Shown here: positions 5,573 through 6,226 of the stretch, piece by piece
How the letters are laid out: each line of letters opens with the position of its first letter
How positions within the stretch are numbered: position 1 is the first letter of the stretch
Sequence record: PV654517
Source of the DNA: Escherichia phage vB_ECOLIGBLB0003
Direction: 5' to 3' (one strand)
Length of the DNA: 64,000 nt
Made by a program: the position numbers and the translations under genes
Notes under the pieces: generated by a model
What the model was told of the DNA's origin: nothing
Database searches by the model: none
Seen by the model: only the letters and a program-made list of their open reading frames with translations

Positions 5573-5775
5573 GTCACCTTCAAGCAATATTCTTCTACGT
5601 GCTGTTTGCGACCTTTCTTATCAATAAAGGTATATTCAACGAATGTTCCAATGTAGTCTTTATCTACATCATGTAGGCTATTAATTGGGCATTTAGTACG
5701 GCAAATGCGTTCCCATTGACGAATAATTTCTGCTTTGTTTTTAGGATCAAACGGATGCGGGTAATGCACTTTCAT
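5563..5775 (-). CDS. hypothetical protein
   Basis: 70-aa ORF with ATG. Confidence 0.45.
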   Translation of the reverse strand: MKVHYPHPFDPKNKAEIIRQWERICRTKCPINSLHDVDKDYIGTFVEYTFIDKKGRKQHVEEYCLKVTWL

Positions 5776-6226
5776 AATCCACCACTATTAAATCAATATC
5801 AGGAGTAAACATGTCGATTAATTTAGAAACCTTATCCCAATCACCGCCAGCAATACCACAACCTATGCGTGGAATGTAAATTACTGGTTTAAACAAAAGG
5901 GTTTCTGCCTGTAAATTTAATTCTATCATGCAATTTACTAAAGCACCATAATCAAGATTAGGACCTGGTTCGTATTGCGTATACAAGTTATAACATATGC
6001 CAAAACCATTAGGTTTATGTTTAAAAACAATAGACATATCACCGAGTTTTTCACGCGAACCATATTCAGTTGTGGTCTTATCTATTTCTAAAATTTTGGG
6101 ATAGGCTCTTGCTAATTGACCAGCTACACCACTGCCCATTGTGTGAAAACAATTGCACCCGTGCGCAATAATATTACCTTGAAGAAATAGGGCGACAATA
6201 TCGCCCTTGATATATTTTACAATCAT
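5747..6226 (-). CDS. macro-domain protein (TARG1/OARD1-like ADP-ribose processing)
   Basis: 159 aa; KGDIV...NIIAHGCNCFHTMGSGVAGQLARAYP and later PRIGCGIAGGDW resemble macro-domain signatures. Confidence 0.55.
   Translation of the reverse strand: MIVKYIKGDIVALFLQGNIIAHGCNCFHTMGSGVAGQLARAYPKILEIDKTTTEYGSREKLGDMSIVFKHKPNGFGICYNLYTQYEPGPNLDYGALVNCMIELNLQAETLLFKPVIYIPRIGCGIAGGDWDKVSKLIDMFTPDIDLIVVDYESALPASV

Follow-up and report, generated by a model that had tools for sequence, protein, structure and literature searches.

We identified a gene of Escherichia phage vB_ECOLIGBLB0003 (record PV654517) as a divergent allele of T4 tk.4 whose product is an ALC1-like macrodomain protein with glutamine in place of the catalytic lysine of TARG1 and DarG. 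By analogy with characterized relatives, we consider it quite probable that Tk.4 is a DNA ADP-ribosylglycohydrolase that would use a Gln-type mechanism to reverse the thymidine marks left by DarT2 on single-stranded phage DNA. The gene family and its function are already known; the catalytic subclass and the divergent allele are two modest additions. Coordinates below refer to the window, the entire 64,000-nt stretch of DNA that was analyzed.

The gene is an ATG-initiated minus-strand ORF of 159 aa that spans exactly 5747–6226. Its translation carries the motifs KGDIVALFLQGNIIAHGCNCFHTMGSGVAGQLARAYP and PRIGCGIAGGDW, confirming the interval and motifs given in the earlier note, which had also correctly assigned the gene to the tk–vs region. 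The ORF lies between vs (6223–6570) and a tk.3 homologue (5563–5775), downstream of regB/vs.1 and upstream of tk (4417–4998), and the gene order of T4 is matched (rI, rI.1, tk, small ORFs, tk.3 homologue, tk.4 ORF, vs, vs.1, regB). Over 4.5 kb around the ORF, the DNA is 97.6–98.2% identical to many Tequatrovirus genomes, including RB3, RB5–RB10 and vB_EcoM_F1. The DNA is thus from a Tequatrovirus, and the ORF occupies the vs–tk.3 interval that holds tk.4 in T4, making it the positional orthologue; besides synteny, full-length homology to the T4 protein (BLASTP, 57% identity over 155 aa, E = 1e-69) identifies it as tk.4/adfM. In GenBank, this T4 slot is annotated as ‘phosphatase; contains A1pp phosphatase motif’. 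The sole 100%-identical record was PV654520.1, ‘Pseudomonas phage vB_PSGBLB0006’ (142 kb, host P. aeruginosa ATCC 9027), and all other close matches were Escherichia or Shigella Tequatrovirus genomes of 166–170 kb; either the host label or the completeness of PV654520.1 seems doubtful. The gene and its junctions comprise the following features:

5747–6226, minus strand: tk.4 (adfM-type) coding sequence, 159 aa, single macrodomain.
6223–6226, minus strand: ATGA overlap between the vs stop TGA and the tk.4 start ATG, from the ORF coordinates (sequence ...actagATGATTG).
6238–6242, minus strand: candidate Shine–Dalgarno-like GAGGA, 11 nt upstream of the ATG and within the 3′ end of vs.
5747–5775, minus strand: 29-nt overlap of the tk.4 3′ end with the start of the downstream tk.3 homologue (ORF 5563–5775, DUF7202).

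T4 also has an ATGA overlap at the vs/tk.4 junction, an arrangement suggesting that translation of the two genes may be coupled. At the other end, the T4 gene for the shorter, 155-aa Tk.4 shares only 4 nt with tk.3. A scan of 3800–8800 returned 17 promoter-like sites compared to 17.1 expected in shuffles; as such sites are no commoner than in shuffles, the scan says nothing on transcription. The best minus-strand match (7633–7605, TTTACT-17-TATAAT with TG) is located upstream of regB. Among neighboring products, the Vs.1 homologue (6563–7108) has an N-terminal signal-like segment and a weak Pfam match to SLT transglycosylases (25.1 bits versus a cut-off of 21.3), while a Pfam search of vs gave no match. 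Elsewhere in the window, eight tRNA genes (Arg, Tyr, Met, Thr, Ser, Pro, Gly and Leu) occupy 15065–16447 on the minus strand. A GTG-initiated ORF of 257 aa (15145–15918) sits between tRNA-Arg and tRNA-Tyr, with its start overlapping tRNA-Tyr; we take it to resemble a seg-type homing endonuclease of the T4 tRNA region.

The macrodomain assignment rests on concordant approaches. Pfam PF01661 (Macro) scored 34.4 bits (E = 2.4e-8; cut-off 22), far above chance and aligned over positions 2–117 of the 118-position profile, and PHROG 335 matched with E = 2e-71. An AlphaFold2 model computed from a 60-sequence family alignment (pLDDT 94.2, pTM 0.89) exhibits the three-layer alpha/beta/alpha macrodomain fold and superposes on solved macrodomains, to which Foldseek added Streptomyces coelicolor SCO6735 (5E3B; E = 1.4e-7, TM 0.75). 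Both Gly-rich loops, M30-G-S-G33-V-A35 and G122-C-G124-I-A-G-G128, occur in the protein and vary little or not at all across the family. Because profile, predicted structure and Foldseek agree, the tk.4 product belongs to the ALC1-like macrodomain class (TARG1/DarG/SCO6735/Poa1p). The macrodomain proposed in the earlier note was therefore borne out by both profile search and structure prediction. Its suggested TARG1/DarG type held for the ALC1-like class but broke down in alignments of the catalytic residues, where the Lys and the TARG1 Asp are replaced.

For this residue comparison, the window protein, T4 Tk.4, PhiPA3 gp108, PDB-derived reference sequences and 120 relatives were aligned using MAFFT and profile alignments. 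Three segments carry the residues compared:

6122–6163, minus strand: loop 1, distal-ribose/substrate-binding, H22-G-C-N25-C-F-H-T-M-G-S-G-V-A35 (from translation and alignments).
5975–5989, minus strand: strand end N80-L-Y-T-Q84, with Gln84 at the catalytic-Lys position of TARG1 (K84) and DarG (K80).
5837–5872, minus strand: phosphate-binding loop P119-RIGCGIAGGD-W130, with Ala126 at the TARG1 Asp125 position.

Within loop 1, H22, G23, N25, C26, G33 and A35 are invariant across the Tk.4 family; N25 aligns with DarG N22 and H22 with the His of TARG1, BT1257 and Poa1p. The loop-1 equivalents N27 and H24 of SCO6735 are required for activity (PMC9411070). All 120 relatives have Gln at position 84, as do T4 Tk.4 and Bacteroides thetaiotaomicron BT1257; the equivalent residue is Lys in TARG1, three DarGs and PhiPA3 AdfM, and Ser in Poa1p. 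SCO6735 Gln85 has been stated to be equivalent to DarG K80 and TARG1 K84 (PMC9411070), and its correspondence to Gln84 is transitive, with phmmer aligning only the phosphate-loop segment of SCO6735. The phosphate loop of the window allele, PRIGCGIAGGDW, conforms to the PRIGCGxAGGxW pattern of the Gln-type subclass and is nearly identical to those of SCO6735 (PRIGCGLAGGTW) and BT1257 (PRIGCGLAGGKW), while unlike those of TARG1 (PRIGCGLDRLQW) and DarG (PPLGxGNGGLxW). With a Gln at the TARG1/DarG Lys position and a loop-1 Asn, both invariant, Tk.4 is, as judged from these alignments, best placed in the Gln-type SCO6735/BT1257 subclass, away from TARG1 and DarG. The catalytic-residue comparison suggested in the earlier note thus went against a lysine-type enzyme. 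TARG1 membership was rejected, as both positions of the Lys84/Asp125 dyad are changed (Gln84, Ala126). DarG membership was likewise rejected: Tk.4 has neither a Lys80 equivalent nor a C-terminal domain nor a darT neighbor, and its score against the NCBIfam DarG equivalog NF048014 was too low (28 bits versus a cut-off of 250). The PADLOC DarG match to the tk.4 product reached only E = 3.6e-7.

Comparison with named systems places T4 Tk.4/AdfM closest: it shares the vs–tk.3 slot, the ATGA overlap, the fold class, the length class (155 versus 159 aa) and all family-invariant residues, including H22, N25 and Q84, but differs in its phosphate loop (PRIGAGIGKGNW versus PRIGCGIAGGDW) and lacks four C-terminal residues present in the window protein. 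SCO6735 (PDB 5E3B) resembles Tk.4 in the Gln at the catalytic-Lys position, in the loop-1 Asn and His, and in standing alone outside a darT operon; by offset from the conserved His and Asn, its Val25 corresponds to Tk.4 Gly23. It differs in being a cellular, DNA-damage-induced protein with ~25% identity to Tk.4 and in a longer, Lys-bearing mobile loop linked by its authors to high DNA activity (PMC9411070). This loop is apparently missing in Tk.4, in which the loop after Gln84 (YEPGPNLDYG) contains no Lys. BT1257 (PDB 2FG1/2AFC) is 26–29% identical and differs by a six-residue insertion after the Gln, relative to the Tk.4 profile, and by its pI (8.4 versus 5.3). The DarG proteins of M. tuberculosis (5M3I) and T. 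aquaticus (5M31/5M3E) combine Lys80 with a C-terminal DarT-binding domain and a darT partner, none of which are found in Tk.4, and human TARG1/OARD1 (4J5R) has Lys84 and Asp125 where Tk.4 has Gln84 and Ala126. Poa1p and Tk.4 have the His and the H-x-C-N-C loop in common, but Poa1p features a Ser instead of Gln84; deposited Poa1p mutants probed the active-site residues H23, S30 and F152. Chimallivirus AdfM (PhiKZ gp104/PhiPA3 gp108) is, like Tk.4, an orphan phage macrodomain acting against DarTG2, but belongs to a Lys-type, DarG-like lineage (N23/K78); in our alignment, the PhiPA3 protein has Lys at the corresponding position. For chimallivirus AdfM, both T-ADPr removal in vitro and import into the phage nucleus have been demonstrated (Cell Rep 2026, PMC13309987). 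The name AdfM was given independently to the chimallivirus and T4 proteins.

Tk.4-type homologues are widespread, with 2767 phage records from many host genera recovered by tblastn (E ≤ 1e-5), while a DarG-type query detected 291 phage records, mostly of jumbo phages (E ≤ 1e-3). Bacterial relatives with HGCNC and GCGxAGGxW motifs numbered at least 504, counting one genome per species. We fetched 80 bacterial loci, of which 66 had a callable ORF. In these, the relatives were mostly stand-alone ORFs of ~150 aa, and 54 contained an N-x-Y-T-Q-type motif. Among the 66 loci, neighbor families recurred only as lineage-specific synteny (six loci in the biggest cluster, all from Ruegeria), leaving a DarT partner beside the bacterial relatives unsupported. 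The sampled neighbors included an EamA transporter, an M23 peptidase, a sigma-70 factor and NAMPT, and from this sample DarT is likely absent. Stand-alone genes without a recurrent neighbor suggest that phage tk.4 descends from a stand-alone bacterial family rather than from a DarG antitoxin. At three bacterial loci (L021, L039 and L079), a nicotinamide phosphoribosyltransferase gene (Pfam NAMPT_N + NAPRTase) lies immediately before the Tk.4-like gene or overlaps it, and the homologue in Vibrio phage Chazly21 adjoins a ribose-phosphate pyrophosphokinase gene, hinting that some subfamily members are linked with NAD/ADP-ribose salvage.

Functional information comes from T4. Earlier work showed that T4 and T2 without AdfA and AdfN are still resistant to DarTG2, predicting a further factor. 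When a T4 transposon library was screened on a DarTG2-expressing host, tk.4 was the single significant hit, and a clean tk.4 deletion made T4 DarTG2-sensitive (bioRxiv 10.1101/2025.11.20.689424). The gene was renamed adfM, for anti-DarT factor Macrodomain; the authors pointed to a structural resemblance of its product to M. tuberculosis DarG and, by analogy, proposed that the protein enzymatically strips ADP-ribose off DNA (bioRxiv 10.1101/2025.11.20.689424). The counter-defence role against DarT that the earlier note had raised is therefore correct, and for the T4 orthologue already published. In the literature that we searched, no Tk.4-type protein had been assayed biochemically. SCO6735 outperforms both DarG and TARG1 in taking thymidine-linked ADP-ribose off DNA and protects E. 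coli against DarT; its activity is abolished by Q85A and nearly so by N27S, and the proposed mechanism is water-initiated, with the Gln positioning the distal ribose (PMC9411070).

The DarT2 toxin of the host places ADP-ribose on thymidines of single-stranded phage DNA and thereby blocks replication. On our reading, the cleft formed by loop 1 and the phosphate loop of Tk.4 would bind the ADP-ribose, and hydrolysis of the thymine N3–C1″ bond would restore the DNA, making Tk.4 in effect an orphan antitoxin for DarTG2. Gln84, held by Asn25, may position the distal ribose and the transition state, with cleavage started by a backbone-held water. This chemistry is probably not the lysine-based one of TARG1/DarG and more like that of SCO6735. 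Beyond the ORF, fold, class, residue equivalences and synteny established here, the window allele (56% identical) would share the activity of its T4 counterpart and exert it by hydrolysis, not binding. Several features count against a hydrolase: the allele is divergent, the catalytic Lys is absent, as the Lys-bearing mobile loop appears to be, and the bacterial relatives, having no recurrent neighbor, provide no operon evidence linking the subfamily to DarT. The mild acidity of Tk.4 (pI 5.3, versus 8.4–9.2 for Taq DarG, TARG1 and BT1257 and 6.7 for the Mtb DarG macrodomain) is likewise unexpected for an enzyme handling single-stranded DNA. Loss of the catalytic Lys would by itself cast doubt on hydrolase function, but this is resolved by SCO6735, an enzyme that works with Gln85. 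A non-enzymatic binder, which the missing Lys might suggest, is far less likely, since Gln-type SCO6735 shows full activity toward T-ADPr DNA and depends on this Gln.

Tk.4 might neutralize DarT2 mainly without catalysis, by binding and inhibiting the toxin or by shielding ADP-ribosylated sites. We regard this as improbable, although the DarG/TARG1 catalytic Lys is absent, the phage anti-DarT factors AdfA and AdfB work through direct toxin binding, and catalytically dead SCO6735 Q85A is an efficient DarT inhibitor in vitro, stronger than DarG K80A or TARG1 K84A (PMC9411070). Tk.4 is a single 159-aa domain without a counterpart of the C-terminal DarT-binding domain of DarG. Moreover, the residues invariant in 120 diverse relatives are those of the active site (H22, N25, Q84 and the G-rich loop), a pattern more consistent with conserved chemistry than with adaptation to a single toxin surface, and homologues are spread over phages whose hosts are many and unrelated and over at least 504 bacterial genomes. 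We give similarly little credence to a role in processing a small ADP-ribose derivative rather than DNA, such as ADP-ribose-1″-phosphate, O-acetyl-ADP-ribose or an ADPr-based immune signal; on this view, what the T4 allele does under DarTG2 would be secondary or allele-specific. The resemblance to Poa1p, the database name ‘phosphatase / A1pp’ and the adjacent NAMPT gene at three bacterial loci point in this direction. In Poa1p, however, position 84 is a Ser and the phosphate loop (PQINSGIFGVPW) is not the same, and the ‘phosphatase’ name goes back to an old Pfam domain name rather than to an assay. What functional data there are for an orthologue concern DarTG2 (bioRxiv 10.1101/2025.11.20.689424). 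The sole biochemical data for a Gln-type relative concern T-ADPr in DNA, U-ADPr in RNA and ADP-ribosylated protein, and no NAD-salvage genes lie beside tk.4 in the window.

T4-type phages encode three ADP-ribosyltransferases, and Tk.4 could instead regulate the phage’s own ADP-ribosylation by erasing Alt/ModA/ModB marks on host proteins or RNA, a function that we judge to be very unlikely. In its favor, SCO6735 de-modifies proteins too (PMC9411070). T4 tk.4, however, scored only under DarTG2 and is dispensable on E. coli K-12 without it, and homologues are common in Felixounavirus and Pakpunavirus. Neither of these genera is known to carry Alt/Mod enzymes. Alt, ModA and ModB also modify arginine, and ALC1-like macrodomains cleave acidic-residue esters and thymine/uracil N-glycosidic links and are not known to act on Arg-ADPr. 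We thus favor removal of DarT2 marks from DNA as the probable function of Tk.4.

The window Tk.4 is 97% identical to the vB_EcoM_F1 protein but only 56–57% to T4 Tk.4, to which T2 Tk.4 is identical. The functional data were therefore obtained with another allele, and transferring the DarTG2 function to the window allele is a reasonable analogy. The flanking proteins are nearly the same as in T4 (Vs and Vs.1 100%, RegB 99%, Tk 99.5% and the tk.3 homologue 93% identity), and the divergence is confined to an island:

5750–6190, no strand assigned: divergent allele island, nucleotide identity to T4 of 30–80% in a sliding window.

From 6197 on, across vs, identity returns to 97.5–100% (in a comparison that extended to 6796), and it is mostly 85–100% in tk.3. 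At the protein level, the differences are concentrated in residues 51–79 (31% identity) and 131–155 (24%), while the active-site segments are better kept between alleles (84% for residues 1–50, 71% for 80–100). In the tblastn survey, ~310 phage records were at least 90% identical to the window allele, with T4/RB69-type alleles near 57%. Such a sharply bounded island in an 85–100% backbone indicates that Tequatroviruses have at least two deep tk.4 alleles, swapped by recombination. At 6189–6207 (minus strand), tk.4 codons 7–13 form a perfect, G+C-rich 8-bp hairpin (AGGGCGAT-ATT-GTCGCCCT) that was called terminator-like on either strand and recurs in T4 with a 9-bp stem. It sits in a ~70-nt block identical in both alleles, and its conservation may merely reflect the recombination boundary. 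The segment between tk and tk.3 (5000–5590) is also non-collinear with T4 tk.1–tk.2. Its ORF 5008–5193 has T4 tk.2 as best match, at only 54%, and the Cys-rich 75-aa ORF 5360–5587 matches the Pfam ‘Phage zinc binding domain’ PF23895 (E = 1.4e-28) and has no counterpart within the T4 tk.1–tk.3 stretch.

The allelic split could be the mark left by an arms race between alleles of differing specificity, with the Gln-type family, present in more than 2700 phage genomes, acting as a broad-spectrum nucleic-acid de-ADP-ribosylase that was recruited by phages from a stand-alone bacterial genome-protection enzyme rather than from DarG; we offer this as speculation and consider it unlikely. Candidate differences between alleles might involve DarT2 variants or sequence contexts, uracil-ADPr RNA, protein ADPr or an added direct inhibition of DarT.

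Tk.4 illustrates how T4-like phages escape a toxin–antitoxin defence that ADP-ribosylates DNA, a point already made for T4, and its role fills one long-unassigned T4 early gene. Placement in the Gln-type subclass makes the usual analogy with DarG unsafe, and DarG K80 chemistry should therefore not be assumed for the T4-type factor. The existence of two tk.4 alleles in near-identical backbones bears on predicting the DarTG2 sensitivity of therapeutic T4-like phages from sequence.
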